A stretch of 64,000 nt of DNA from Trypanosoma brucei (GCA_000002445.1 CP000071.1:704001-768000), one strand, 5' to 3'; numbered from the stretch's first letter, positions 2,489 to 27,084 are shown. Made by a program: numbers and translations. Notes: a model not told the origin generated them from the sequence alone.

Positions 2489-2860
2489 AAAGTAATCGAG
2501 TCGGAGCCCGGACGTGTTAGGGTCGCAACAAAACCCGTAATGATTCTGAAGCCCCTGTGCCTTTGAGTTCGCTTTGGCTATTTCGCTTTCACTCCTTCCC
2601 CAGCTGGCAGTGATATATGTTCCCCCACCACCATATCTGTCGTCATGTCTGCACGCTGTCTGTCCTATTACCCCTGTTTAACCTCCGCCTGTTTGACAGA
2701 CTCTTCTTTAATGATGTTCCAGTATCGCCAATTATAATAGCAACAATAATATGCCTTTCCTCTTCGTTTCCCTTCTATATACAAGGATGCACGGAAAAGT
2801 AGTCACGGAAAGAATCGCAGTGTGTCGCGAGTCCTCATACCGCCTTTGCCAGGGGAAATA

Positions 2861-5800
2861 ATGGATGAAGTTGGTGCTCTGACCGTCCAAGATGTTTTAA
2901 CGGTGTGGCTTTGCGACCTTCCGCTTAAGACGACCCTAAAGGATGCACTATCAGGAGTGACACAACTTACAGGTGAAGAGAATATTAACCAGATACTGAG
3001 GTTCCACCCGCCGCATGCCAGTGCGCTGACGCAGTCTGGGGAGTGCAAAGGAATGCTTTCGCTGGTCGGTGAAAAAATCATTAAGGCGGTTGCCTCACAA
3101 TATGCATTACTAAGCTTCCCAGTAGGGGACACCTACAAACTAACCAACGCCACGCGCGTCCTTATATCCAACGAAACCTTCGGAACTGTACTGAAGCAAT
3201 ACACTGGCCCAACTTTCGGTGAGCGTGAAATGTTCACGCGCTTCCTTGCACTTTCCTTGTATGGACACGGGGTGCGGGTTGCCTGCATGTTGCTTCTGCC
3301 GGTGTTCAGGGCGACTCTGCTTGCTAACCAATACGCCATCGATCTACCTGCTGTATTAAACTCCCTCGTACCATGCGCATCTTTTTCTCGTCGGAACCTC
3401 GGGGAAAAGCTTGAGATGCTGCGGGGAGAGCTTGAGAAACGGGGTGTAGTTGTTAAGAGAGTCGTGGAGTCGGGCCCTTGTGGATGGGGTGGGTGTGAAC
3501 GATACACCGTGGAGGTGTTGTATGGCGGGGAGCTGTCGCGGTGCGAGAAGGGAAAGGTGCTGAGTGAGTTTTATCATATTGTCATGGAGGAAGCGAAGAA
3601 AACTATAGCTAACACAGAGGTCAAAAAGCCAAGGACCGTAACTTTCGAACCTGAGCACCTCAAGATGTGGATGCATAATTTGCGTTTCCTGCTGCGCCTC
3701 AGTGACAGGTACAGAGATGAGTTTGACGACAACACGCTTCAGTCGATAAAGCAAAGCGCCGGTTGGATACCGATCAGCGAAGTTCAACAGCTGCTTGAAG
3801 CCCAAGTAACCAGGTCAAACAGGCAGCAGCCACCTGGGCGCGATTGGATATGTGAGCTTGTGAAAAGGCACGATCTCCTGGGGCGATTCCAGGTAGGAAC
3901 CTGTGACGTAGAGGGAAGTGAGTTCGAGGGGCTACAGTGCGCGCGTGCTCTTTACGGTCACGAGGGGCGCAATCTGCTGATGAAGAGTGTATTTGACTCG
4001 TTCAGCACCATCCGTGATCCTGGTGGTCGACCCTCCACTGGATGGATGCGCATTGATGGAAAAAGGATGAAGTTGGTGAGCAAAGACAAAGGTTATTCGC
4101 TACATGACAGCATACCGCATGTCACTATCCATTCGACCGAAAGCCTTCACGCTTTTCAGTGGTATCGCCTAAAAAAACCGTTAGAGGAACAGTATGACGA
4201 AATATTGTCGTCGCGGAAGCCGCTGTACTTTGCGGAGTTTCGTCTTCACGATGCCTTAAATGACGATAGGATGCTAGTGAGGGAATTAAAGGGCATTGGC
4301 GCTGTTCCGCCACAATGGGTCGTTTTTACAGAGCATAATAGAGATGATGACCACCAGAGGAGCACTTTGGTTATTCCGGAAAATTACTTCACTGGAAAGG
4401 TAGCGGTGTTGTGTACGAATGCCGAGGATGTAGCGACCGAAGGCATGATTGACACAAAGGATCGACAGACCCCTGAAGATGAGGAACTTCTAATCGTCTA
4501 CAAAACCTGGCTACTGTCAGCAGATACACAAAACTCCGGTGACAGCAAAGATGGTGAGGAGAACCTGTCTCCACGCCACAGGCTGCCCGCCCACCATACC
4601 TCAACCGGTGCTACTAGCAGTGATGACAAAGGGACGACTTCGGTTGGAGCACACGATTGTGTGGTGATGGACCAGGCAGAGCAGCCCAGCGTACCGACTG
4701 CAGACTATATGGAGATGCTTCTGGATGAGGAGAAGAGAAAGATAGAGCTTTTCGAAAATACAAACACGTACGCCACTTTCGTAGCCTTTCCCAAGTACAA
4801 TCTTCATGGTGCTCAGATCCAAAACCGCTCCAAGGGCATTGCAGCATTTAAGACATGGATACAGGAACGGGGGTTGAAGTACTCTCGTTGGCGTACCGGA
4901 GAGAATGACCAGGAGGAAACATATGAGGTGCGCAAACCGCGCAACTGGAGTGCTGAGTTCGTGGAGTGTATAGCAGGAGAGCTGGGACTTACTCACATGC
5001 CTGACAAAACACTTCTCAAGTGGGCAACTACACGGGAGTGTGAGGATAAGGAACAGAACTATGAAATATTGGAATTTATCGGCGATGCCATAATGGATTT
5101 TATAGTGGTATCAGACAGCTTTCTTCTGGGGGAGCCCTGGCACAAGGATGTTAATACCAAACTGTGCTGCAACGAAGTACTAGCCACACTCATTCCACCC
5201 GGACTAAGCGAGGAACTCTCGAGAGTTTATGACGAGGTTCATTACAAGGTTAAAGCAGACATGGTAGAGAGCATTCTGGGAGCAGTGTATCAAAGCGGGA
5301 TGGGGCTTGATGAAGTGCGGAAGCAGCTACGAAGGTTTTTCAGGTGGATCCCCGATATTATCATGGATGTTAAGAACTTGTGTAACTCCACTGTCGAGGC
5401 ACTTCGTGCCGCCGAGAGAGTGTGCCCGTACCTTCATCCGAATGAAGAAGCACTTGACCAGTTATTCAAGTATGATTGTGAATCACTCATTGACGAGGAA
5501 TTCTTTAGTATGTTTGGATGTGTGGATCGCAAACGTTTTGATGCTCGGGGGGCGAGCCACTACGCATTGACACCATTTCACCGGATCCAAGACAAAATGT
5601 TCGCAACACACTTCACCACAGGTTCGTGCTACTCGTACCGTTATGTTCCCTCTATTGATACTCCATCCATATTCAACAGAATTCTTTCCGCATTTTCAGC
5701 TGGATCTATTGCTTTTGTAAATGAACTTGTTACCGAGGATACGCATGTAACAATCGATTTCGATGGTGCCAGTGTCCACGCACACGGTGCTCTGCGCCTC

Positions 5801-7807
5801 ATTTGGAGTTGGTTTATTGGCAAATTCCCCTCAAAATCGTCTATGTTTCTTCTAGACTGCTCAGGAATGTCAGTGGTCACAAACAGGTTAAAGTATTCGT
5901 ACCACATCCACTTTCCACAAGCGGTGACAACTCTAAGCAAATCGAAGTCCTTGGTGGAAGAGCTCCAGTCTTATGTCGTTAAATGCGTGGGTGCGGGCAG
6001 TTTGTTGGGTGACATTGTCGGGTTCCATTGGAAGGAAGGTGAGGGTAACCAAGAAAGGGAAGCGGCCGTAGCGGGACGCGTGATATTGTGCACCAAATTA
6101 TTGCATCAAAGGCTACGCGAAGCCGGGGGGAGAGTTGATGCGAAGTTCTCCGCGTACATGGATTTACAGAGCATCCTTGCACTTGGGCGGACGTGTCGTG
6201 AGATACGTCATGCAACACTCAGCTACCTGTGCGAGAAATTGCATCCAAAGGAACCTTGGGGTTTTGTTGTGATGGGTTGGTCGCGGCATCCCGTCGGCCA
6301 GACCAGCGAACGAGAGCCCCAGTTTGTGCTTGTGCGGACGCTATGGGCCTCTCAACAAGAGAAAGACTACATTGGTACGTTGATTCTTTTTCCCACGGAA
6401 AGTTTGAGTGACACAACCGATGAAACGAGCTCTGTCTGGAAGGCAGTTGTGCGGAAAGTGAAGGAAAAGGAGTGTAAGCCAAAGGAGTTCTTCCTTGAAG
6501 TCGTCAAGTCGAGTCGGGAACAGTGCATTTTCTCTTCGGCTTATTGGGAGCGAGTTATTGATAGCAGTCTACATAGCAGCAGGAAGTTGAGAATGTACTT
6601 GAATGACAAGTTCGATGTGAAGTATGGCCAGGAGTTCCGACCACTTTTTCTCGAAAGACTGGTCAACTCCAGTCAAGAAGTGAGGACAGTGACACCCAAG
6701 GAGAGCAACGTGTCTCGCTTTGTCAGGAGCCAGGAAATGAAGGCTTCAGCAAAAGACAACGGTGAGGAAGAGTACCCGGTTGAGGTTGCACATGGGTCAA
6801 CGCTCCGCCTTGTTTCCCTCCGATGCCCAGGGTACCGCGATGTGTATGGTAAGCTTTGGAACGCGTGGTCAGTAGGAAACAACAGCGACGATACATTTGT
6901 CAGCATCGAGCTCGGCACTCCGGTGGACGACTTGCTACCAGTTTTCGGCGCTGAATATAAAGAGGACGAAATCCTTTCAACGGAATGGACCCGTTTCGTG
7001 GAAGGCGCTTTTGGGCTGCAGCCGAGTGTAGAAACTCTGGGTGGTGGCAGCAGCGAACAGAAAACAGCTGCTTTGCAGCCTGCATACTGGATTTACGACC
7101 CTAAGTTAGGTCAGGCCAACTTTTGCATCGCTGGTGAAGTCGCCTTCTTCATCAGGCCATGTACGTGTCTGTTGGAGGGTCTAACGACACAGGGAGGAAT
7201 GAAACAAATGGTACAATACATTGTACCGACAGTTAAGTTAGAAGACTTGCCGACAAGGGAGTGGATGCGGTCGTATCCTTCAAATTGTTTTCCGCTCTTC
7301 CTAGCACCACGAAAAGGAAGTTGCTTCCAGCCCGCAGGTGAACCACATCCGGTGGTGGCATCTAACGACGGTCAGACAATTACGGTTCAAGCCCCGGTCA
7401 CAGCGGCTGCTGTTACACGTGTCCGTTCTAAGGTCATTGAAGTAACACTCAACAGCAGCACCCAAAGGCCCGTGGACTTTGAACAACTCTACAAGGCGAT
7501 GGATGATGTGTTCAGTGGGTCGTATGGCCCATCCCTTTTTGTCACGTCTGATATGGCGATTTTTTCGGTTTTACTAGACCGCTTCCCATGTGTTGTGACT
7601 CCTGATTATTTCAAGTCTTCAGTGTCGGAGGACTATACAATCCATAACGGCCGCACCTTTCACTACATCTTTATTATGGACAATGCGTGCGACCACTACC
7701 AACACACAAAGGTTTCCACAGGCCTGCTGGAACTGCTAGACAAGGAAGTCGGTATGATATTAGTGACGAGTGCAACTATACAAAAATTTTTTCGCACAAA
7801 CCGCTGA
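2861..7807 (+). CDS. DCL1: Dicer-like RNase III domain protein (DCL1-like), 1648 aa from the first ATG
   Basis: Canonical RNase III signature 'NYEILEFIGDAIMDFIV', then about 70 aa later 'KADMVESILGAVYQSGMG', so the E/D and D-x-x-E catalytic positions are present. The ORF track starts at GTG 2822; the first ATG at 2861 gives 1648 aa, the length I recall for T. brucei DCL1. A protein this large with an RNase III domain in trypanosomes is expected to be the cytoplasmic Dicer. Confidence 0.7.
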   Translation: MDEVGALTVQDVLTVWLCDLPLKTTLKDALSGVTQLTGEENINQILRFHPPHASALTQSGECKGMLSLVGEKIIKAVASQYALLSFPVGDTYKLTNATRVLISNETFGTVLKQYTGPTFGEREMFTRFLALSLYGHGVRVACMLLLPVFRATLLANQYAIDLPAVLNSLVPCASFSRRNLGEKLEMLRGELEKRGVVVKRVVESGPCGWGGCERYTVEVLYGGELSRCEKGKVLSEFYHIVMEEAKKTIANTEVKKPRTVTFEPEHLKMWMHNLRFLLRLSDRYRDEFDDNTLQSIKQSAGWIPISEVQQLLEAQVTRSNRQQPPGRDWICELVKRHDLLGRFQVGTCDVEGSEFEGLQCARALYGHEGRNLLMKSVFDSFSTIRDPGGRPSTGWMRIDGKRMKLVSKDKGYSLHDSIPHVTIHSTESLHAFQWYRLKKPLEEQYDEILSSRKPLYFAEFRLHDALNDDRMLVRELKGIGAVPPQWVVFTEHNRDDDHQRSTLVIPENYFTGKVAVLCTNAEDVATEGMIDTKDRQTPEDEELLIVYKTWLLSADTQNSGDSKDGEENLSPRHRLPAHHTSTGATSSDDKGTTSVGAHDCVVMDQAEQPSVPTADYMEMLLDEEKRKIELFENTNTYATFVAFPKYNLHGAQIQNRSKGIAAFKTWIQERGLKYSRWRTGENDQEETYEVRKPRNWSAEFVECIAGELGLTHMPDKTLLKWATTRECEDKEQNYEILEFIGDAIMDFIVVSDSFLLGEPWHKDVNTKLCCNEVLATLIPPGLSEELSRVYDEVHYKVKADMVESILGAVYQSGMGLDEVRKQLRRFFRWIPDIIMDVKNLCNSTVEALRAAERVCPYLHPNEEALDQLFKYDCESLIDEEFFSMFGCVDRKRFDARGASHYALTPFHRIQDKMFATHFTTGSCYSYRYVPSIDTPSIFNRILSAFSAGSIAFVNELVTEDTHVTIDFDGASVHAHGALRLIWSWFIGKFPSKSSMFLLDCSGMSVVTNRLKYSYHIHFPQAVTTLSKSKSLVEELQSYVVKCVGAGSLLGDIVGFHWKEGEGNQEREAAVAGRVILCTKLLHQRLREAGGRVDAKFSAYMDLQSILALGRTCREIRHATLSYLCEKLHPKEPWGFVVMGWSRHPVGQTSEREPQFVLVRTLWASQQEKDYIGTLILFPTESLSDTTDETSSVWKAVVRKVKEKECKPKEFFLEVVKSSREQCIFSSAYWERVIDSSLHSSRKLRMYLNDKFDVKYGQEFRPLFLERLVNSSQEVRTVTPKESNVSRFVRSQEMKASAKDNGEEEYPVEVAHGSTLRLVSLRCPGYRDVYGKLWNAWSVGNNSDDTFVSIELGTPVDDLLPVFGAEYKEDEILSTEWTRFVEGAFGLQPSVETLGGGSSEQKTAALQPAYWIYDPKLGQANFCIAGEVAFFIRPCTCLLEGLTTQGGMKQMVQYIVPTVKLEDLPTREWMRSYPSNCFPLFLAPRKGSCFQPAGEPHPVVASNDGQTITVQAPVTAAAVTRVRSKVIEVTLNSSTQRPVDFEQLYKAMDDVFSGSYGPSLFVTSDMAIFSVLLDRFPCVVTPDYFKSSVSEDYTIHNGRTFHYIFIMDNACDHYQHTKVSTGLLELLDKEVGMILVTSATIQKFFRTNR

Positions 7808-9070: not shown

Positions 9071-12000
9071 ATGCACTCGGAATTGAAAGCCTATGCTGTT
9101 CTTGTTGCTTTTACCCTCCTTGGAGAGCTTGGTCCCTTTCGAGGCGCGTACAGCTCCGTCGAGGACGAAGTAGCGGCATCGCATTCCCTCCAAGAGGTTC
9201 TTGATTTCCCAACTGTATCATATTATGACTCACTCGTAGGAGAGCCTTTAACGGGAGGGCACCACCGTGGTATCGTTGATATGTTTTCCGGTAGCTCCAC
9301 TGAGTGCTTCAACGGAGGTGTGCCCCCGACGAATGGGGATTCGAACTGCACCTGTCCCGCGCGAAGCAAATTTTCAGGTCTTAAGTGTGAGATGTGCCAG
9401 ACAGATGGTTCGTGTGATTCCATCGCAGGTCCGCAAAGTGTGTGCGAGAGGAGGCTAGCAATTTGGGGATCAAACAAGCAGTTCGAGTGCTCATTTAACA
9501 CGCCATTCTTCATTAAGCAAATGGGTGGCGGCCGCGATGTCGAGGCCCTCGTGACTCTCAATTGCTCAACACCCGATGGCACCGCCTTTCATGAGAGTAA
9601 CTCCGGTACCTGCGAGATGACATTGTTCCGGGTGGAACCAAAGCACGAATATGTAGATCCATTTTTTAGTTGTTCGGTGGAACAGTGCACGATGCACCTC
9701 GAGGAAATCAAAACGAACAAGGCAAATAAAACACCAACCAACTCAAACATCATCTCGAAGGCGGGCCTCATTGCATGGCGGGTGCTCATTGTCGCATTGT
9801 GCCTGCTACTGGCGATGCTGCAGTGCGTTTCACCCAAGGTGGGTCGCGGACGAACGGCGAAGCTTTTGTATGTGCTAGCTTGCCTGTTGGTAGCGGTGAC
9901 ATTACTTTTTATACTCGTGATGGTTCTCAACATGCATCAGGGGACACCGGAACTCAATGCCGTGTACGAGTGTAATAAAACACATTGCGACTGCTCGGAG
10001 GATCCACCGAAGGAGTATGGACCATTTTGCTCAGGAACGGTTATGAAAAAATTTATACTTCCGCAGATCAAAAACTCTATCAAGATAGTTTGTAACTTGC
10101 AGGATAAGACGTGCAGGCTGACGCTAAAGGACGTTAAAATCATTATTGACTTAAACTGCACAGCCAGTGAGTGCACAAATAAAAGGAAGTTTCCCAACGG
10201 ACCGTCGCTGCCGGTACCGGCAGATGATAAGGCACAACGGGCACTACTCACTTTCATTGCCCTCGGTTTTTTGGTGTTGTTGGTGCTGTTTGGTTTGCAT
10301 GTTTTGTGGGTCCTTAGGAGGACGCAGAAAAGAAAGGCCGAATTCGTTGATAGGTTTGGACTCCCAGAGTTGTGGACTCAAGAAGGAGAAGAAGGTGTGC
10401 CAGAAACGCGTTGCAACGGCCAGGGGTGGGGGGTTGCAACGCAACGGCAGCGGCGGCACGAGGGAGGTGCAGGGGGCTTGACTACAGCACGAAGCGCAAT
10501 GTCCATCGGCGAAGCCGGTGGATCAGCGCAGAGAAGTTGTAGTGGTGATATGCCCAGCTTAAGTGAATCCGAGAGGCACTTCACCAGCAACACTAACCGA
10601 CATGACAAGAAGGATTTCATCCGTGGGGTGACAAAGTCTCCCCTCAAACTACAACTGACTGATTTGGACTACAAGCTTGAGTCCTCTTGCTTTTCCAGCA
10701 ACAATAACGATGCATCACAACATATACTGCAGCAAGTAAACTTCTCTGTGAGGTCAGGAGATGTGCTTGCAATCATTGGCCCCTCAGGAGCTGGGAAAAC
10801 GAGCTTGCTAGACCTTCTGTCGGCACGGAGGAAGCAAGGACGTGTCTTTGGAGAGATGACAATAAACAACACCCCGCTAGTCGGTGCCTCCAATGAGGTT
10901 ACGGAACAGTATCGTAACATCATTGGTTACGTCTCCCAGGAAGATACGCTGATTCCAGCCCTGACAGTATACGAAACCATCAAGTACGCCGCCCGGTTGA
11001 AGCTACCTCAGGCGTTCTCCAGCGAAAGTATCAACGGGATTGTAGACCGTATGATTGAAGCGTTGAGATTGACTCGTTGTAAGGACACAGTCATTGGTGA
11101 TGGAACCAAGCTGCGTGGTGTTAGCGGAGGAGAGAAGCGGCGAGTCTCAATTGCCGTAGAGCTATTAGCCAACCCGCGTATCCTCTTCCTTGACGAACCA
11201 ACAAGCGGTCTTGATGCTGTCAGCGCCAAACATGTCATCGATGCTGTCGTTCAGCTTGCAAAGGAGTCACCTATGCGGGCATACGCACCGCATTACTTCG
11301 CGTTCAGGCCCATTGTCATTTTCAGTATACATCAACCTTCACAGGAAATTTACGAGCTCTGTGATAAAATTTTGCTTCTTTCACGCGGTATGAGTATCTA
11401 TTGTGGTCCCGCCAGCTGTGCTGCGGAGACACTTGAGGCACGCGTCCAACGGGTGATGGGAGGCGTCCAGACAATCCCACGCCTTGCCGACAACCCGAAC
11501 CACGCAGAGTATCTGATGAAGCTCGAGGAAATTGTCGACGATGTGGCACGCGTGGAACTTCAGAGGGAGAACACGGCACAGATGCTTTCAAGAGACGAGA
11601 CATCATCAGGAATGCGTCACGAAGAGCAAGCCATAATCAGAGGGGACATCATCCTCAAGACAACTTTTGGCTTCCGCAGGTATTATGCGAATGTGTACCA
11701 GCAAGTTGGGCTGCTAACGTCGCGTGCAGCTCGTTCTCTGCTTACCTCTTCTCATCTGATTGTCTGCCACGCTGCAGTTACGGCATCGGTCAGCACCCTC
11801 ATGATGATCTTATATCACGAGGAGGGGCTGGATCTCCCAGGAGCCCTTAACCGTGCGGGGTCCGTCACGTTTCTTCTGTTGGTTGTTTCATTTGCATCAC
11901 TAAGCTGCCTTGAGCATCTGGTCACAGAGCGGAAGCTGTTCGCAGTGGAGCGCGAAAACGGGTATTACACCACTCTGCCGTATCTCCTGTCGAAGATAAT

Positions 12001-12547
12001 TGTCGACATCATACCGCTCCGAGTTCTACCGACGTTGGTGATGGCAGCGCTCATCTATGTGCCCATGGGGCTTCGGGGGGACAGTGGCATACACTTATTC
12101 TGGTTCATCATCATTGTGGCACTGTTTTCAGTCTGCATTACACTGATTGTAATGTGTGTGGGAGTTGTTACTGGTTCATTTGGTTCCGCTGCCCTTTTGA
12201 GCAGCGTCGTCATCCTATGGAACTTCGTTTTTGGGGGTTTGCTCGTGCAATCAACAACAGTCCCCGCGGCACTTCGACCGTTCCAGGCAGCCTCGCCTTT
12301 CTTTCTTGCCTTTGAATCTCTATTGGTGAATGAACTTGATGGGCAGGATTGTACCTTCGCTCCGACAGACGCAACGGGAAAGCCATCGTCGACAAATGTA
12401 CCAATTTTATGTGTGCAGTACTTGACCAACATGGGCCTCACACCCGCACGCTTTACCAGGGATGTTGGGCAGCTTGCGGTAATGGTGCTCGTGCTACTGT
12501 GCTTGGCGTGGCTACTTCTGTTCCAATTCACTACTGTCGCACGTTGA
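9071..12547 (+). CDS. ABCG-family half transporter (NBD-TMD) with a long N-terminal signal peptide, Cys-rich ectodomain and three extra TM segments, 1158 aa
   Basis: Walker A 'GPSGAGKTSLLD', Q-loop 'GYVSQED', ABC signature 'VSGGEKRRVSIA', Walker B 'ILFLDEPTSGLD' and H-loop 'FSIHQPS', followed by a hydrophobic block of about 6 helices, which is the ABCG (reverse) topology. Residues 1 to about 450 carry a signal-peptide-like N-terminus, Cys-rich segments with NxT/S sites and three hydrophobic segments. Confidence 0.85.
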   Translation: MHSELKAYAVLVAFTLLGELGPFRGAYSSVEDEVAASHSLQEVLDFPTVSYYDSLVGEPLTGGHHRGIVDMFSGSSTECFNGGVPPTNGDSNCTCPARSKFSGLKCEMCQTDGSCDSIAGPQSVCERRLAIWGSNKQFECSFNTPFFIKQMGGGRDVEALVTLNCSTPDGTAFHESNSGTCEMTLFRVEPKHEYVDPFFSCSVEQCTMHLEEIKTNKANKTPTNSNIISKAGLIAWRVLIVALCLLLAMLQCVSPKVGRGRTAKLLYVLACLLVAVTLLFILVMVLNMHQGTPELNAVYECNKTHCDCSEDPPKEYGPFCSGTVMKKFILPQIKNSIKIVCNLQDKTCRLTLKDVKIIIDLNCTASECTNKRKFPNGPSLPVPADDKAQRALLTFIALGFLVLLVLFGLHVLWVLRRTQKRKAEFVDRFGLPELWTQEGEEGVPETRCNGQGWGVATQRQRRHEGGAGGLTTARSAMSIGEAGGSAQRSCSGDMPSLSESERHFTSNTNRHDKKDFIRGVTKSPLKLQLTDLDYKLESSCFSSNNNDASQHILQQVNFSVRSGDVLAIIGPSGAGKTSLLDLLSARRKQGRVFGEMTINNTPLVGASNEVTEQYRNIIGYVSQEDTLIPALTVYETIKYAARLKLPQAFSSESINGIVDRMIEALRLTRCKDTVIGDGTKLRGVSGGEKRRVSIAVELLANPRILFLDEPTSGLDAVSAKHVIDAVVQLAKESPMRAYAPHYFAFRPIVIFSIHQPSQEIYELCDKILLLSRGMSIYCGPASCAAETLEARVQRVMGGVQTIPRLADNPNHAEYLMKLEEIVDDVARVELQRENTAQMLSRDETSSGMRHEEQAIIRGDIILKTTFGFRRYYANVYQQVGLLTSRAARSLLTSSHLIVCHAAVTASVSTLMMILYHEEGLDLPGALNRAGSVTFLLLVVSFASLSCLEHLVTERKLFAVERENGYYTTLPYLLSKIIVDIIPLRVLPTLVMAALIYVPMGLRGDSGIHLFWFIIIVALFSVCITLIVMCVGVVTGSFGSAALLSSVVILWNFVFGGLLVQSTTVPAALRPFQAASPFFLAFESLLVNELDGQDCTFAPTDATGKPSSTNVPILCVQYLTNMGLTPARFTRDVGQLAVMVLVLLCLAWLLLFQFTTVAR

Positions 12548-19473: not shown

Positions 19474-20259
19474 ATGAATATCGTCACAAGCTACTTCCTG
19501 GTGAAGCGCATTCCCGGGAGCATTTTTCTTGGTGAGGCTTCCCTACGAAATGCCGAGGCACGGCAGCGTGAGTACTTGGAATGCATCAGGCAGAATGTCA
19601 CTCACAGAGAGGTGGACTCCCTGCATCTTCTTATCGAGGGAAGCGACGCATACAACCACTTCCGAACACATATTATGGAGAACAATAATTCGTTTCCCGA
19701 CGGGCGGTTGCGGCAGAAAATCGTGCCGATACTGTGGCAGAAAGGGCAGCCAACGTACGCGGACTTATTTGAACACGCCAATAAGCTTCTCCGAGGGCGA
19801 TTGGCGATGGTATGCAATGCTGACGTTTACATATCTCAGCACGGTGCGTCTGTGCGGGATCTGGCAAGGCTCTTTGACCAGGGGGTACCGCGTGTGGCCT
19901 TGGCGTTAACGCGATATGAGAGCGAAAATTTTATGGACGCACCACTGCAAGATAACTACAGGGGGTCCCACGATGCTTTTGTTGTACGACCGCCGTTGGA
20001 AGACTCATTGCTAAGAAGCGTGAAACATCCGCAGAACTGTTACAAGGCGGAAAATGTTGTGTTGCACGAACTACAACGGCATGGGTACATGGTGAAGAAC
20101 CCCTGCCGCGATTTCATGCTGGTACACCGCCACGAAGCGGATCTGCGGCAGTGGCTGCCTTCTGTCGATGAGGAACGGTATGCGAGAGCACCGCCATGTA
20201 GCATTGAAGAAGCTGTAATCGCCCTGAAGGAAGAGAACGACAGGTTGGAACGGCATTAA
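19474..20259 (+). CDS. hypothetical protein, 261 aa
   Basis: ATG ORF in the gene-strand orientation with non-repetitive composition. No domain recognised. Confidence 0.45.
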   Translation: MNIVTSYFLVKRIPGSIFLGEASLRNAEARQREYLECIRQNVTHREVDSLHLLIEGSDAYNHFRTHIMENNNSFPDGRLRQKIVPILWQKGQPTYADLFEHANKLLRGRLAMVCNADVYISQHGASVRDLARLFDQGVPRVALALTRYESENFMDAPLQDNYRGSHDAFVVRPPLEDSLLRSVKHPQNCYKAENVVLHELQRHGYMVKNPCRDFMLVHRHEADLRQWLPSVDEERYARAPPCSIEEAVIALKEENDRLERH

Positions 20260-20815
20260 ACGCTTTGGAGTTCTTTGGGGGGGGGAGAGGGGGTGTACCC
20301 CCGAAGCCAGCGGGTGTGTTCTGTGTAGGTAGTGTGTGCTTGCTGTCGTCTTAATTGCGAGGATTTTTTTTTTCAAACCTCCAGACTCGTTCTTCTCCGT
20401 AAAGCGCTTTCTTGCTGCGGACCAGCATGACAGGAACAGTTCGATCACTCTTTGGGCGCCTCTCATTTCATTTACACATGCATTTCCTACACTCCAGAGG
20501 CCCCGTTGTTTGAGCCCACTCTTTGCTAGTGGGGAATTCCCACCTCAACAACACTTTGTACACGTTTGTTTTATTCTTTACACTGCATATGCACGCTTGC
20601 TGTGTGTCTGTTGCATTCACGGGTATGAACAGATGACTATTCCTTTTTTCTCCTTTCGTGTTGCTCCGTATTGTACCTTTAACTGTGGCGAAGCACCCAG
20701 TATTTGTCCTTCCTGCTGCTACTGAGGGCAGCAGTGATACAAAAAATAGGCTCCACACCTTTCCGGCCTCCCCAACTCGCGTCCACTGTACGATACGTTT
20801 GTTCGCGGGCAGTTT

Positions 20816-21529
20816 ATGGTTGTGCGGGAGGTGGTTAAGCGAGTCCCAAAGCAGGTTGTTCCACTGCATGGTGTGTGTGGTTATGCCCCGGGTTGTATAC
20901 CCGCCTACAGCAATGGTACAGATACAACTTTTACTTACCAAGGTCACTACGCCGACAATTTCTTTATGGGATACAAGTGGCAGTGTGTAGAATTTGCCCG
21001 ACGTTGGTTACTGTTACGCAAGGGCCTAGCCCTCCCGCAGTATGATTTCGCTGCACATCTCATTCACATGCGCGAGGTGTGTGATGCAGAGACGGGGGAA
21101 GTTGTTCCCTGTAAATTCGTATCGCAGGGTTCACCGGAACCACCAGTGGCGGATGCCCTAATCGTGTATCCGGGCACAAGGGAAAATATTTTCGGCCATG
21201 TAGGTGTTATCACACACGTGACTGATGCACTTGTCGGCGTGGCCGATCAGAATCGATTCTTCCATGATTGGGATGGGCGGCCTTACGCAGCGGAGTTCCC
21301 GCTAGAGTGCGTGGATGGACAATATTTCATCAGAGATCCTCTCGTGGAGTGCCGCGGGTGGGTCACATTTCCCGAACGGCCAAACCGCGTCGAGGGAGTG
21401 CCGCTCGTTGTGTCGCCGCATGTGCGTGGTCCTCCAAAGGTTCATATCTGCAAGCGAATCAATTATGTAGCGGGACAGTTGTGGTCGTGGTGTTTCAACA
21501 GAGAATGCATCACGTTTGCTCGAACCTAA
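20816..21529 (+). CDS. standalone CHAP-domain amidase resembling the N-terminal amidase domain of trypanothione synthetase / glutathionylspermidine synthetase-amidase, 237 aa
   Basis: 'GYAPGCIPAYSN', 'FMGYKWQCVEFARRWLL', 'PEPPVADALIVYP' and 'GHVGVITHV...VGVADQN' line up with the TryS/GspS amidase domain as I recall it, including the nucleophile Cys (in QCVEFARRW), His (GHVGV) and an Asp 16 residues after the His. The ORF ends right after the amidase domain, with no ATP-grasp synthetase part. Confidence 0.6.
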   Translation: MVVREVVKRVPKQVVPLHGVCGYAPGCIPAYSNGTDTTFTYQGHYADNFFMGYKWQCVEFARRWLLLRKGLALPQYDFAAHLIHMREVCDAETGEVVPCKFVSQGSPEPPVADALIVYPGTRENIFGHVGVITHVTDALVGVADQNRFFHDWDGRPYAAEFPLECVDGQYFIRDPLVECRGWVTFPERPNRVEGVPLVVSPHVRGPPKVHICKRINYVAGQLWSWCFNRECITFART

Positions 21530-21599
21530 ACAACAACGATGAACCTAGAGGAGGGGATGACCAGCCAGCAGTTTATTGCCCTTTGTATCTGGGGTTGCA

Positions 21600-21621
21600 T
21601 GTGTGTGTGTGTGTGTGTGTG
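21600..21621. repeat. (GT)11 microsatellite
   Basis: Direct read of 'tgtgtgtgtgtgtgtgtgtgtg' in the intergenic region after the CHAP amidase gene. Confidence 0.95.
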
Positions 21622-21997
21622 CTGGAGGGGTAGTGCACGCCCATGGATGTGAGCAGGTCCATTTTTTTGTTGCAATGCACCTACATAAGCAGGTGGCGCA
21701 GGGGACCATATGCTCTTTCTCGCACGCACGGGTGGTAGTTGCCTTCCATATGAGAGTAAACGAGGTGCACGTTAACTATTGTTTGTTATGCAAGTTGGGT
21801 GAAAGAATCTGGTGCCGTGGTGGGCGCCGCGAGACAACGTTGACCAGAAGTAATACTCTGTGTTTATGTGCGCCGTAATTTATTGTGGATCCCATCTCTC
21901 GACGCTCTCTCCACTGCTTCACCACTTCCAGGCACCAGCGAGGCTGTTGCTAAGCATTTGAACTGGTGTTTGGGGTAAAAGGGAGGATATAAGAGGC

Positions 21998-22915
21998 ATG
22001 TACGGCCCGCACCACCGCGTTGCTCCACTTCGTCACACTGGCGCCGGTGTGACGAAACTCCCTCGCAACCATTGCAATCAAGGCCTGCAACGACAGTGCT
22101 CATACGCGACGAACACGCTCCAATCCCTACCATATGACACACAAGGTGCCACGTCAGCAGCAGGAGGAGGCATTGGGTCCCACACGATGCCCGCGCGTAT
22201 GCAACAACCACGGCTATCGGTGCCATCACATTCACATCCGCCGCCCTTCTCACAGCTCGCGACGCAGTCCACACCGACGCAGCTGGGTGACGGGCTTGTG
22301 TCAGGCAGGTCAGTCCCAAACGTAAATTATCAACAACCGTCACAGCAACAACCACAAGGTAGTATGGAGGCTGCAACCGCCTTGCTGGCCTTTACGCAGG
22401 CAATCCAGGGGCAGGAAAGGCACATGGCCACAGGTTGTCAGAGCCTCTTGCATTTACGTGCCATAGCGGAGGCACAAAGTGCGCAAGTCGCCGCGGTGAA
22501 TGCACTCGCCACAGAAGTTCGGGCAATGGTCGAAGCAACTCGCGATGTATGCCTTCTGTTGACACGTACGAGGGAACAGCTTCCCGAAACCAAAACTTCA
22601 GGAGTCCATCGGCGCGAGTCCCATGGGCCCTTCCGTCCCTTTTCGAGGCTTGTGCTCGGCGAGGAATGTTCCCCCCACGCCTCACCTGTGGAGGTTGCAA
22701 GTGAACACAGCGGAAACGAGAATAAAACTAACGTTAAAACGTGCGGATGGAGGGACGGCGTCAACGATACGGGTGCAGCGTACATTTCAGCGACCGCCGG
22801 CTTGAAAAGTGTCGTACTGCGAGGTGCAGGAGACGGAGCAGCAGCAGCAGCAGCGTCGCCAGTTGAGAACACCTCACAACCACAGTACATCGAAGATGAC
22901 ATTTTCTCTATGTGA
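21998..22915 (+). CDS. hypothetical Gln/Ala-rich low-complexity protein, 305 aa
   Basis: ATG ORF. It contains a (GCA)n-encoded poly-Ala run ('GAGDGAAAAAASP') and Q-rich stretches. No domain recognised. A real gene is plausible but unproven. Confidence 0.4.
   Translation: MYGPHHRVAPLRHTGAGVTKLPRNHCNQGLQRQCSYATNTLQSLPYDTQGATSAAGGGIGSHTMPARMQQPRLSVPSHSHPPPFSQLATQSTPTQLGDGLVSGRSVPNVNYQQPSQQQPQGSMEAATALLAFTQAIQGQERHMATGCQSLLHLRAIAEAQSAQVAAVNALATEVRAMVEATRDVCLLLTRTREQLPETKTSGVHRRESHGPFRPFSRLVLGEECSPHASPVEVASEHSGNENKTNVKTCGWRDGVNDTGAAYISATAGLKSVVLRGAGDGAAAAAASPVENTSQPQYIEDDIFSM
22838..22855 (+). repeat. (GCA)6 trinucleotide repeat encoding poly-Ala inside a CDS
   Basis: Direct read of 'gcagcagcagcagcagcg' inside ORF 21998..22915. 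Confidence 0.9.
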
Positions 22916-23544
22916 AGAATTAGCGTGGCGCTCCTTTGACATGTTCCTGTGGGCGTGTAGCTCCAACAGTGTGACCTTCTTCTTTTTTTTTTCGTGATTG
23001 CTTAACAAACACACACAGGTGTCCTCATCTAAATGGATAGGTACCGTGTATGTGGGGGAGAAGGGGCTGGGTTATGGCCTTCCGTGATCCTAAGGAACAA
23101 CCGAAATCTGATCCCACTTTACCTCCTTTTCACTTCTTCACATGTGACTGTCCGGCATGTGCCGTTTTTGACATTGTGATTACGGTGTGCTCATCAACAC
23201 CATTTGGTTTTCGTAACCGTTGTTATTTTTTTTCGATATACCAGTTGATTTGTGCCACATGAGAATTAGCCTTAACAACAACGCTATAACCATGTTGAGC
23301 GCATTTGCAGTAGACACATATTTTCTTATCTTTCCTACTTTTATCATCTGCTTGTGTGCGGCCTGAATAACAGTTGGGGAGAGGGGAACAGTGCCAGAGA
23401 GTTAAAAAAAAACTTAACACTTCACCGCAGTAGTAAATAAATTCTCCCGCCGTTGTTTACTCTGCAGATGCTCTTGATAATTTCCTCCAATGTATTTTTC
23501 TCTATTCTAAGAGCATAAAAAGGTTGGGGAAAGGGAAGGAAGTG

Positions 23545-26500
23545 ATGAGTGATTTTGACAACAAATGTCAACCCTCCCTAAGGAATAACCTTCGCTCAGC
23601 TACAGAAACACTTAACCGTCTGTGTCGAGCGACGCCAGAGCAAGATATAGGTAGAATGCTTCGGGGAAATAAGACAACTCCACAATACAAAGCCGCTGTT
23701 ACACCTTCAGCGAGGGAAAACAACACCTACCCAACCAGATCCTCACCGGCAGTAGCGACATCAGCTTCGCGGGCCCCAGGCACGGCGGGCGAGTGGGCCA
23801 ATGCCTTCCGTCTTCTTCAATCCCAAGTGTATAACTGTGTGGTAGAGCTTGACACGGAACGAGTTGTGCGCAGCAACAACATCCGTGAAGTGGAGCAAAC
23901 ACTCTCAGGTCATGTGGGGGAGTTGCGTGCCATGATACTGCAGATGAAGAAGGAAAATGAGTACTTGACAGGTGTAGTTCGATCGCTTCAGAAGCGGGTG
24001 TCGCCACATCGCGCTGGTAGGAGCATCGGCAACGGAGAGCATACGATCACCTCTGCTGCGCCTCCTCAAACAATGACCACCGTGGCCGGTATGGCTGCGC
24101 TTACAGAGCGATTGGAAGCGTTAGAAGATACCGTAGCACGGCAGCAGCGAGTTGTCGGAGACCGCAACACTCGGCTGGAGGGAAATATCCGTGAGATGGT
24201 GGGAAACGCCGTAAATATCGAAGTGGAACGAACACGCCGCATTGCGCGTGAGGCGGCCCGCGACTGCACCGACGAACTTGTGCGCACTCACCTTGCATCC
24301 ATACAAGCGGTCCTTCAGAGTGAACGTCAGCATCAGCAGAAGGTTGATAGCGCATCAAGCGACGCGGTACGTGAGGTGGTGCAACACTTCAGGAGGCTAG
24401 AGGTTGATGTGCAGCGGCGTTTGCAAGAGATGAATTCAACAATTACTGTTATAAGGCAACAGCAACAACAGCGGGAGTCAGAAATTCAGGAGCTTTCGGT
24501 CCGTGTCGCGCAGGATGTCTCAGCAGTAGAAAGATCCGTCGAGGCTGCTCGGCGTGAGCTGCAGAGCGGTATAGCAAAGAACGCACAGGCCAATGAGGCA
24601 CGCGCTGAAGCAACTCAACTCGCCTTGGAGGCTGCGGTTGCAGAACGGGCGATTGCAGCAAGTAAAGAGGTTGTTATGCACAGGGCCACTATCATTGATG
24701 CAGCAGAGGCTGGAGCCAAGCAAAAAGAACAGCAGGAAGAGCAGCGTTTGCTACGGCGACTTGAGGATGCGCAGCGTACCAATGAAACGGTTCAACGGCA
24801 ACAAGAAAAGTTAGAGGAGCAACTGAAGGGGCTGCAGAGTGTAGTGCAAGAACTTCAGCAACAGCTTGTTGAGGCGGTTAAGGCATCCAATGTCGCATCA
24901 GCGGATATAACAAAGTGGAAGGCGCGTATCCGCGAGGCGCTAACGACAAGCGAGGAAGCCCGCACGCTCGCACAGGAGTCCACTGCGTGTGCGCAGAAGA
25001 CAGAGGACTCAGTGCGCGAGGCACTGGCGCGTTCTGGGGTGCAATTGAAGAGACTGGTGGCGGATCACGAGAATGGCACTCTTTTGACTCAGCAACTCAC
25101 TGAAAAGCTTGAGGCAACTGAAGCCCGTCTCGCTTCGACCCGAACTGTCGTGGACGACCTGAGCGAACGCCATAAAAATAGTTTACTCCCAATGACCGCA
25201 AGGGTGGAGACGCTCCACCGAAGTTTGCAAGACATCTTTGGACCGAAGATGGAGGAGATAAGTGGTTCTCTAGTAGAATTGAAAGCAACTGTGGAGCAGC
25301 TACAGTTAAATGCCTCCTCACGGTCGAAGTCAGACGCCCGACAACTATCGGATATGAGGCGTGAGTACACCACCGACATACAGCAACTGAAGGATTGTTT
25401 ACACCAACAGGTACGTGAGTGGAAGCAGGAGTGCTGCACATCGTCAAGTACACTAAAGGCGGCAGTGGATGGGTTAAGTGACACAGTAAAGTTGCAGGAG
25501 CAGTCAACCACGAGGAGAGAAGCACTACATGCATCAGCCGCAGAAGTTGCAGTGCTTTCGGATAGGGTGCAGGCGTTGGAGGCGGCACGTGAGGCGGTTG
25601 AATGGCGAGTTGCAAGAGGGGGAAAGACATCAAACCTCGCCACAGCCACTGAAGGAGCTCAACAGTCAGCAGGAGAAACAACGGTAAACTCATCCGTTGG
25701 GGAACCAGGAGCCGCTACAGATTCAGAACTAGGAAATAATGGTGAGGTCATTTACGAACTCCGGCATCGAATCACCGCCGTGGAGCAATGTGTACGGAGT
25801 CGTGAGGACAACCTCCAAAAACTGGTACGCAACGACATACAAAAAGAAGTAGGGAGACTTGAGCAACTGGTAAACCGCATGGATGAAGAGAACACATCTA
25901 GGATGCAACTGCTGCGAGTGCAGCTCAGTGACGACGTGGCAACGCGGTGCAAAGGCATGCTATGCGAAGTGGAAACCCCTGCACAACGTCAGTTACAGTT
26001 GCAAGTGGATCGCCTACGCGAGTCATTGAACCCGGCAAAACTCATTGCTGCTATCGAAGCTGATGTGGAACTTCAGAACCACCTTTCACTTGCATTGCAA
26101 GACGCTTTCGCCCCGCGCGTTGGCACATCCGAGTCCTTCGTACAAATGAAACGACGACTACAGAAGGCGGAGGATGAACTAGCCGAAGTGAAAGTGCATA
26201 CACGTGAACAGAATGAAAGAATGAAGATAATAGAATCGAATTCGGAGAAATACATGTGGGAATCTAGTAACCAGACCCAAGGAGAGGGAAGTGCGGGCGG
26301 AAGGTCAGAGGTAGGTGTGCTTTTGCAGTTACTGCAGACAAGCATGAAACAGTTGCAGGAGGAGCAAGCGGCAGCGAGGCGCGAGCGCGAGTTGTTACGA
26401 ACGACCGCGAAGGTAGTGGAAACGGCCGCCCCCGCAGTAGAGGTAACTAGTGGAGAGGGCCCAAGTGCCGGCCACCACTGCACCTCTGCGGATGAAATGG

Positions 26501-27084
26501 TTAGGTCGGATTTAAAGACCTATTTGGAGGGTTGTATCAATGCCGTCGAGGCAAAGGTTGAGGCGGCTGCGCAGTCTACTGCTGACACGCTTGATGTTCT
26601 AAAGCAGAGCATCGAGATGTGCGTGTCGTTTTTTGTTGATGAAGTGAACGCCTCTGCACTATTAAACCCCTTATTTTTACCCATAGAAGCAGGTCAGAAT
26701 AAACTAAACGTGAACACCGTGAAGGGTTTGGATGGTGTGCTCTTATTTCTTTGGCAACACCAGTGTGGTTTACAGGCTGCCGTACAGGCGCTGCAGGACG
26801 GGAGTTTAGGCACACTCGACTTGCTGCAGCATCACGAAGAACAGCTAGCGCTGCTGCAACCGGTGGGGCCGCTTGCAACTCACACTGCAGCTCAGTTGGA
26901 GCGGCTTGCTGTCAGTTTGGGCCTTCCACTCGATACGGATGCCATGGATGAGATGGAGGAGGAAGTGGAAGTGGAAGGCGAATTGATAGAAGACGATGAT
27001 AATGATGATGAATTAATGGAGGAAAGTGAGGAGTTGGTGGAGGAAGAGGAGGATGAGGCAGAACAGCCTGATGAAGAAGTGTAA
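23545..27084 (+). CDS. long coiled-coil protein with an acidic C-terminal tail, about 1179 aa
   Basis: Track start is TTG 23524; first ATG is 23545. There is a heptad-like E/Q/R/L/A-rich sequence throughout ('LEAAVAERAIAASKEV', 'QQEKLEEQLKGLQSVVQELQQQL'). The C-terminus 'EEEVEVEGELIEDDDNDDELMEESEELVEEEEDEAEQPDEEV' is acidic. Confidence 0.55.
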   Translation: MSDFDNKCQPSLRNNLRSATETLNRLCRATPEQDIGRMLRGNKTTPQYKAAVTPSARENNTYPTRSSPAVATSASRAPGTAGEWANAFRLLQSQVYNCVVELDTERVVRSNNIREVEQTLSGHVGELRAMILQMKKENEYLTGVVRSLQKRVSPHRAGRSIGNGEHTITSAAPPQTMTTVAGMAALTERLEALEDTVARQQRVVGDRNTRLEGNIREMVGNAVNIEVERTRRIAREAARDCTDELVRTHLASIQAVLQSERQHQQKVDSASSDAVREVVQHFRRLEVDVQRRLQEMNSTITVIRQQQQQRESEIQELSVRVAQDVSAVERSVEAARRELQSGIAKNAQANEARAEATQLALEAAVAERAIAASKEVVMHRATIIDAAEAGAKQKEQQEEQRLLRRLEDAQRTNETVQRQQEKLEEQLKGLQSVVQELQQQLVEAVKASNVASADITKWKARIREALTTSEEARTLAQESTACAQKTEDSVREALARSGVQLKRLVADHENGTLLTQQLTEKLEATEARLASTRTVVDDLSERHKNSLLPMTARVETLHRSLQDIFGPKMEEISGSLVELKATVEQLQLNASSRSKSDARQLSDMRREYTTDIQQLKDCLHQQVREWKQECCTSSSTLKAAVDGLSDTVKLQEQSTTRREALHASAAEVAVLSDRVQALEAAREAVEWRVARGGKTSNLATATEGAQQSAGETTVNSSVGEPGAATDSELGNNGEVIYELRHRITAVEQCVRSREDNLQKLVRNDIQKEVGRLEQLVNRMDEENTSRMQLLRVQLSDDVATRCKGMLCEVETPAQRQLQLQVDRLRESLNPAKLIAAIEADVELQNHLSLALQDAFAPRVGTSESFVQMKRRLQKAEDELAEVKVHTREQNERMKIIESNSEKYMWESSNQTQGEGSAGGRSEVGVLLQLLQTSMKQLQEEQAAARRERELLRTTAKVVETAAPAVEVTSGEGPSAGHHCTSADEMVRSDLKTYLEGCINAVEAKVEAAAQSTADTLDVLKQSIEMCVSFFVDEVNASALLNPLFLPIEAGQNKLNVNTVKGLDGVLLFLWQHQCGLQAAVQALQDGSLGTLDLLQHHEEQLALLQPVGPLATHTAAQLERLAVSLGLPLDTDAMDEMEEEVEVEGELIEDDDNDDELMEESEELVEEEEDEAEQPDEEV

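Follow-up and report, generated by a model that had tools for sequence, protein, structure and literature searches.

Does a Trypanosoma brucei gene annotated as a trypanothione synthetase (TryS), whose product stops after 237 residues, encode a synthetase, the relic of one, or a free amidase? The gene lies on the plus strand at positions 20816-21529 of a 64,000-nucleotide stretch of T. brucei DNA (GCA_000002445.1 CP000071.1:704001-768000), hereafter called the window. Its product matches exactly XP_847074.1 / UniProt Q57XE8, "trypanothione synthetase, putative", of T. b. brucei TREU927, and near-identical T. equiperdum proteins bear the name "amidase, putative". The TREU927 contig that carries the gene is 2.48 Mb long and presumably represents chromosome 8. 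An earlier note on this DNA had described it as a standalone CHAP amidase resembling the excised amidase domain of TryS. We find that the protein is of the glutathionylspermidine (Gsp)/trypanothione-amidase type, keeps the catalytic residues of TryS and has no synthetase domain. It is probably a free-standing, active cysteine amidase, whose cleavage of glutathionyl-polyamine amides would escape control by a synthetase domain.

A free-standing amidase domain of the TryS type

The open reading frame (ORF) runs uninterrupted over 237 codons, from an ATG start to a stop, and the opposite strand is full of stops. Its main elements are:

20816..21529, plus strand: complete ORF of a standalone TryS/GspS-type amidase, from the ORF reading.
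20858..21385, plus strand: amidase catalytic domain (CHAP / MEROPS C51, papain-like), approximately aa 15-190, from phmmer, Pfam, AlphaFold2 and Foldseek.
20984..20986, plus strand: codon of the nucleophile Cys57, in the motif QCVEFARRW (QCVEF at aa 56); equivalent to L. major TryS (LmTSA) Cys59 and to TbTRYS Cys57.
21197..21199, plus strand: codon of His128, in the motif GHVGV at aa 127; equivalent to LmTSA His130.
21245..21253, plus strand: codons of Asp144-Gln145-Asn146 (VADQN at aa 142; Asp144 at 21245-21247), from the alignment to LmTSA.

CHAP (PF05257) is the single Pfam domain of the protein (aa 51-146, E 8.9e-9, 36.2 bits against a cut-off of 26). Among PDB sequences, the best phmmer match was LmTSA (2VOB/2VPS/2VPM, E 2e-50), with residues 15-217 of the query aligned to residues 17-225 of the chain, followed by the E. 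coli Gsp amidase fragment 3a2z (E 4e-21) and by full-length GspSA (down to E 1e-18). The alignment thus extends along the length of the TryS/GspS amidase domain, as the earlier note had claimed. Only positions 8-190 of the 619 in the NCBIfam GspSA equivalog model PRK10507 are covered.

Cys57, His128, Asp144 and Asn146 align column for column with LmTSA Cys59, His130, Asp146 and Asn148, which Fyfe et al. 2008 defined as the catalytic triad and the oxyanion-hole asparagine (PMC2427367). Hence Asp144 is the third triad residue and Asn146 the oxyanion-hole residue, and the 16-residue spacing between His and Asp, also pointed out in the earlier note, is the same in both proteins. Ten residues are invariant in the 86 aligned homologues: Q56, C57, V58, E59, R62, R63, G127, H128, Q145 and N146. 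All 46 kinetoplastid-type standalone homologues in the alignment keep the catalytic Cys, His and Asp and the oxyanion Asn. At position 144, each of the 46 has Asp, while most remaining sequences of the alignment, those of the bacterial GspSA type included, have Glu.

An AlphaFold2 model built on the 86 homologues (pLDDT 92.1, pTM 0.89) has a papain-like CHAP fold in which Cys57 starts a helix (57-69) and His128 starts a strand (128-135). Foldseek searches of the PDB placed LmTSA first (2vob_B, E ~1e-23, rmsd 1.1-1.2 Å over 196 columns, 47% identity, TMq 0.77) and E. coli GspA next (E ~1e-17, TM 0.69, ~30% identity). All the matches were CHAP structures, the best peptidoglycan-hydrolase lysin being 4olk (E 1.2e-3, TMq 0.34, compared with E 5e-24 for TryS). 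This gap between TryS/GspA and the lysins identifies the protein specifically as a Gsp/trypanothione-type amidase and not a peptidoglycan-hydrolase CHAP.

Overall, the likeness to LmTSA extends over ~200 residues (~47-50% identity, rmsd 1.1 Å) and includes the triad with its spacing, the oxyanion Asn, the QCVEFARRW helix and the interdomain linker motif FPxRPNRxxGxP...PP. In contrast to LmTSA, the ATP-grasp synthetase domain is missing. Pfam GSP_synth (PF03738) had no match in the 237-aa protein, nor in the three forward frames of ~21400-23430. Similarly, tblastn of the whole window with four synthetase-domain queries (P0096, P0104, P0036 and P0081) returned only scattered matches, the best with E 0.26. 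Since the protein ends at aa 237 and no synthetase domain is found in it, in the downstream frames or in the 64-kb window, the name "trypanothione synthetase" (EC 6.3.1.9), used in the TREU927 and DAL972 annotations, is a misnomer for this gene. A second amidase or CHAP copy, or a tandem array, was not found either: in tblastn against the window, the ORF matched only itself.

The N-terminus, MVVREVVKRVPKQ, contains no hydrophobic stretch, the C-terminus reads ITFART, and no transmembrane segment is predicted (maximum 19-mer hydropathy 1.46). These features, together with Cys57, rule out identity with ERGAD, another single-domain protein of kinetoplastids that is paralogous to the TryS amidase domain (PMC10903960). 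Unlike the protein studied here, ERGAD is directed to the ER, with a signal peptide and a KDEL-like retention signal; it lacks the nucleophilic Cys and is predicted to be inactive (PMC10903960).

The retained linker, the C-terminal tail and the origin of the gene

Two further elements follow the catalytic domain:

21371..21466, plus strand: TryS-type interdomain linker F-P-E-R-P-N-R-V-E-G-V-P...P-P-K...K-R-I-N-Y, approximately aa 186-217, aligned to LmTSA 189-225.
21446..21493, plus strand: C-terminal helix, aa 211-226 (C-K-R-I-N-Y-V-A-G-Q-L-W-S-W-C), bearing Cys212 and Cys226 and followed by Cys231, from the AlphaFold2 secondary structure and the tail alignment.

The linker also aligns with that of T. 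congolense TryS and of a 657-aa bifunctional protein (P0096), and the ORF terminates ~20 residues beyond it. The standalone proteins of Trypanosoma and Bodo keep the TryS linker in the form FPxRPNRxxGxP…PP…RR.xF, which differs from the E. coli enzyme, where the sequence used has no counterpart. Beyond the linker, the protein has what LmTSA does not, its own conserved C-terminal helix and a tail with cysteines. The helix is moderately amphipathic and is modelled with a pLDDT of ~90 dropping to 78. The tail motif LWSWC...TF (…YVAGQLWSWCFNRECITF) is kept among Trypanosoma orthologues and absent from those of Leishmaniinae.

The relationship to TryS was examined with a neighbour-joining (NJ) tree of the amidase domain, a rough phylogeny of 199 columns with support counted as unrooted bipartitions in 100 replicates. 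The kinetoplastid-type standalone proteins form one clade (90/100) and the amidase domains of kinetoplastid TryS another (85/100). The two unite in 99 of the 100 replicates, to the exclusion of the other eukaryotic bifunctional enzymes, of rotifer proteins and of bacterial GspSA. Because the standalone clade is sister to kinetoplastid TryS and retains its linker, the simplest reading is that the gene is an ancient duplicate of a bifunctional gene minus the synthetase half. A TryS/GspS-like bifunctional gene would have been duplicated and its ATP-grasp half then lost, before the Bodo/trypanosomatid split. In evolutionary terms, "excised amidase domain" is therefore an apt description.

Amidase-only homologues of ~205 aa are also present in bdelloid rotifers (P0061 of Adineta steineri, P0064 of Rotaria sp.). 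They cluster with a 626-aa bifunctional protein (P0104) in 100/100 replicates, apart from the kinetoplastid clade, a placement that suggests either a separate loss of the domain or acquisition by horizontal transfer.

Cys21 (nt 20876-20878) and Cys179 (nt 21350-21352) are kept in all the named trypanosomatid standalone orthologues, TryS having Gln and Pro at these positions. An obligate pair or disulfide was not supported, as other kinetoplastid-type sequences show C/P and Q/C pairings, without strict covariation.

Proposed activity and substrate cleft

In the proposed reaction, the Cys57 thiolate, paired with the His128 imidazolium and oriented by Asp144, would attack the glycyl-carbonyl amide that joins the glutathionyl group to an amine. 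The tetrahedral intermediate would be held in the oxyanion hole by Asn146 and the Cys57 backbone NH, and a glutathionyl-thioester acyl-enzyme would then form and be hydrolysed, releasing glutathione and the amine. The most probable substrates would be Gsp, trypanothione, or their S-conjugates and mixed disulfides. The protein lacks not only the synthetase domain but also the C-terminal segment (LmTSA 634-652) that in LmTSA forms the last part of the amidase domain and acts as a plug in its active site. Its activity would hence be uncoupled from synthesis, and control could instead operate via expression, the redox state of Cys57, or location.

The catalytic and acyl-side residues are invariant with those of GspA/TryA, and the polyamine side of the cleft is partly kept. 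Fyfe et al. assigned seven LmTSA cleft residues to the spermidine and second glutathionyl moieties: Asp38, His39, Thr123, Asn126, Asp178, Glu181 and Glu183 (PMC2427367). Four of the seven are found in the T. brucei protein (D38→D36, T123→T121, N126→N124 and E183→E178). Because of this difference between the two sides of the amide, the broader description is the firmer one: an active glutathionyl-amide hydrolase is well supported as a prediction, and a free trypanothione/Gsp amidase is the leading guess for the exact role.

Several points weigh against an active Gsp/trypanothione amidase. In the cleft, LmTSA His39 is replaced by Thr37, the acidic loop (LmTSA 176-185) is 4-5 residues shorter, with the loss of both Asp178 and Glu181, and Asp36 varies among orthologues; the leaving group may thus not be spermidine. 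Fyfe et al. obtained no soluble isolated LmTSA amidase domain and blamed the loss of the C-terminal segment (PMC2427367), so that a free domain would need stabilising elements of its own. A precedent for a stable free domain does exist: E. coli GspA, the 197-aa N-terminal fragment of GspSA, was crystallised alone (PDB 3A2Y/3A2Z/3A30). In E. coli the domain is naturally part of a fusion with the synthetase and not the product of a gene of its own, and bacterial enzymes have Glu, where the T. brucei protein has Asp, as third member of the triad. Moreover, the sister paralogue family ERGAD is a pseudoenzyme (PMC10903960), which means that standalone copies can lose activity; the protein of the window retains every catalytic residue. 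Finally, the searchable literature holds no biochemical or genetic data on the protein.

Alternative substrates and a possible lipid anchor

The protein could instead be an active cysteine amidase or peptidase whose natural substrate is neither free trypanothione nor free Gsp. It would then cleave trypanothione S-conjugates of xenobiotics, Gsp or trypanothione attached to proteins by S-thiolation, or some other glycyl or gamma-glutamyl amide. We regard this explanation as unlikely overall, yet S-conjugates and protein-bound Gsp/trypanothione are serious alternatives. The altered spermidine/second-glutathionyl cleft (H39→T; D178 and E181 deleted) is in its favour, as is the conservation across the standalone family of R147, F149 and H150, which lie beside the oxyanion Asn and differ elsewhere. 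For the TRYS amidase itself, Wyllie et al. 2009 argued that S-conjugates may be the preferred substrates (PMC2784880), and the E. coli Gsp amidase has been assigned to a Gsp S-thiolation cycle, where it processes Gsp disulfides as well as mixed disulfides (PMC6272389). A lipidated Leishmania orthologue, described below, also suggests a localised role over bulk cytosolic turnover. On the other hand, the catalytic centre and the acyl side do not differ from those of GspA/TryA, the closest relatives in structure and sequence all act on Gsp or trypanothione (T(SH)2), and no direct evidence points to any alternative substrate.

The L. donovani orthologue, LdBPK_230500.1, has been detected as a protein and is one of 30 high-confidence N-myristoyltransferase (NMT) substrates in amastigotes (PMC4372256). 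The sequence of LdBPK_230500 (L002 6001-6978) starts with MGCTSS…, and Leishmaniinae orthologues consistently start with MG(C/S/T)xxS, a start that is not found in Trypanosoma, Bodo or related environmental sequences. These carry C-terminal Cys clusters: C212, C226 and C231 in T. brucei, "GCCxR" in other trypanosomes and a terminal …SCCCC in Bodo. Unlike the T. brucei protein, the Leishmaniinae copies thus have an N-terminal MG(C/S/T) extension and no Trypanosoma-type tail; in them, a low-complexity stretch of ~50 residues is also inserted after the Cys helix and before the His strand (P0024-P0040, P0091).

Lipid tethering of the amidase through N-myristoylation has been shown for Leishmania, and a tether may also exist in Trypanosoma. 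A bolder and more doubtful proposal is that the family is a lipid-anchored, TRYS-independent trypanothione/Gsp-amide hydrolase, with N-myristoyl or palmitoyl groups as its anchor in Leishmaniinae and S-acylation of C-terminal cysteines playing that part in Trypanosoma and Bodo. Its site of action would be a membrane and its targets trypanothione S-conjugates or S-trypanothionylated or Gsp-ylated proteins, and it would supply a residual trypanothione degradation that masked the phenotype of the amidase-dead TRYS C57A line.

Is the protein catalytic, and is the gene intact?

A non-catalytic or regulatory protein could also keep the triad, as a binder of Gsp or T(SH)2 or as a redox-sensing scaffold operating through Cys57 oxidation. 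ERGAD, as another kinetoplastid standalone paralogue, is a predicted pseudoenzyme (PMC10903960). In recombinant TRYS, the amidase activity was below 1% of the synthetase activity (PMC2784880). In E. coli GspA, which shares the conserved nucleophile, this residue (Cys59) is redox-sensitive and is reversibly oxidised to sulfenic acid, as a redox switch (PMC6272389). We nevertheless consider a non-catalytic role improbable: conservation of Cys, His, Asp and oxyanion Asn in 46/46 standalone homologues is what is expected for catalysis, not for mere binding.

A truncated pseudogene copy of TryS, or an artefact of annotation or assembly, would explain why the TryS linker is present with the ORF stopping soon afterwards, and why the gene is annotated "trypanothione synthetase, putative". 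This explanation is effectively refuted. The ORF is intact, and its protein is identical or near-identical in T. b. brucei, T. b. gambiense and T. equiperdum. Its catalytic residues are kept throughout, and even its C-terminal tail is kept among Trypanosoma species. No synthetase remnant was found in any frame, either in the three downstream frames or by tblastn of the window. Lastly, the Leishmania orthologue has been found as a modified protein.

Synteny leads to the same conclusion. Short homologues (~190-380 aa) were found in T. cruzi marinkellei, T. rangeli, T. grayi, T. melophagium, Leishmania spp., Porcisia, Leptomonas, Novymonas, Angomonas and the free-living Bodo saltans. The conservation across Trypanosoma and Leishmania about which the earlier note had asked therefore extends to Bodo. 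The trypanosomatid and Bodo orthologues, including those of the four named trypanosomes and the Leishmania gene (LmjF.23.0460, LinJ.23.0500, LdBPK_230500), belong to the same family, with the same catalytic residues and no synthetase domain; the named ones carry the annotation "trypanothione synthetase, putative" or "amidase, putative". In T. grayi, the similarly short orthologue is flanked by orthologues of the window ORFs 19474-20259 and 21998-22915. Window 23524-27084 has its orthologue on L. donovani chromosome 23, two genes downstream of the short amidase orthologue. A truncated pseudogene is thus rejected on synteny, on conservation and on the empty search for synthetase remnants, and the T. 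brucei ORF stands as a genuine gene maintained by selection.

T. brucei is not known to have peptidoglycan, and a peptidoglycan-type CHAP hydrolase, gained by horizontal transfer or serving an endosymbiont-related function, is barely credible: many members of the Pfam CHAP family are cell-wall amidases, but TryS/GspA are ~20 orders of magnitude ahead of the lysins (TM 0.77 against 0.34) and the NJ tree nests the protein beside kinetoplastid TryS. Such a function had been raised for Leishmania CHAP proteins by Besteiro et al. 2007 (PMC2244715).

Genomic setting

All the window ORFs of at least 200 aa that are not nested within a longer one lie on the plus strand, which matches the expectation for a trypanosomatid polycistronic unit. 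A spacer of 556 bp (window 20260-20815) precedes the amidase ORF and includes the following element:

20640..20815, plus strand: 5' intergenic candidate trans-splice acceptor region, with pyrimidine-rich tracts and then AG dinucleotides, read from sequence only.

Such tracts followed by AG are typical of trans-splice acceptor regions, and we treat this one as a candidate. In the 3' intergenic region, at ~21585-21625, is a short (GT)n/(TG)n microsatellite, translated CVCVCVCV.

The immediate neighbours at 19474-20259 (plus strand, 261 aa) and 21998-22915 (plus strand, 305 aa) have no Pfam domain and are syntenic in T. grayi, with 67% and 36% identity, respectively. An FtsX-like permease gene (~1100-1160 aa) lies directly upstream of the amidase gene in T. 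grayi (L001 1401-4871) and L. donovani (L002 1-1559). With tblastn (E<=1e-5), no counterpart was found in any part of the T. brucei window, and the flanking orthologues are set apart there by the 556-bp spacer alone; a lineage-specific loss or relocation is apparent.

An ABCG-type ABC transporter (ABC_tran and ABC2_membrane domains) is encoded at 9071-12547 on the plus strand, and the ABCG5 gene LdBPK_230430 is near the amidase orthologue LdBPK_230500 on L. donovani chromosome 23 (supplement listing of PMC4372256), a hint of extended synteny. The 1661-aa ORF at 2822-7807 (plus strand) combines KptA_kDCL, La_HTH_kDCL, Prim-pol 4 and RNase III domains in a DCL1-like gene. These kinetoplastid Dicer-specific domains, together with the RNase III domain, bear out the earlier note's remark that the organism encodes DCL1.

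Prior knowledge and significance

The novelty implied by the earlier note did not hold, as the gene was already present in the TREU927 annotation and its relatives had been published. According to Mashiyama et al. 2012, T. brucei has five MEROPS C51 proteins, TRYS and four amidase-only members; these authors stated that the active-site residues align and predicted an amidase function for the amidase-only ones (PMC3516576). From its C51/CHAP match, the TREU927 protein described here is presumably one of these four. In L. major, uninvestigated CHAP proteins had been noted by Besteiro et al. in 2007 (PMC2244715). The description of the gene as functionally unexplored does appear correct, since no enzymology, knockout or localisation study of it was found in the searchable literature. 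The family is already catalogued, and the value of this work lies in flagging an uncharacterised enzyme, not in discovering one; specialists in trypanosomatid redox biology would not be surprised by it.

The misnomer has reached the Leishmania literature. The orthologue LmjF.23.0460 / LinJ.23.0500 / LdBPK_230500 is called "trypanothione synthetase" in expression papers (PMC3101167; PMC5470736; PMC5470852), and its up-regulation has been read as increased trypanothione synthesis (PMC3101167; PMC5470736). The quantitative PCR primer published for LinJ.23.0500 (PMC5470736) is an exact match to the orthologous locus. An active protein would catalyse the opposite of the synthesis assumed in those studies.

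Trypanothione metabolism is a parasite-specific, validated drug-target pathway, and the protein is a small, well-folding target (model pLDDT 92). Three outputs may be useful: the flag on the reference annotation, a possible redundancy with the TRYS amidase, and the lipidation lead. In those sections of the amidase-dead TRYS study that could be consulted, no paralogue is mentioned (PMC2784880). A catalytically intact paralogue could compensate for the loss of the TRYS amidase. If the lipid-anchored hydrolase proves real, a double mutant would be needed to re-examine both the non-essentiality of trypanothione amidase and the verdict against it as a drug target.

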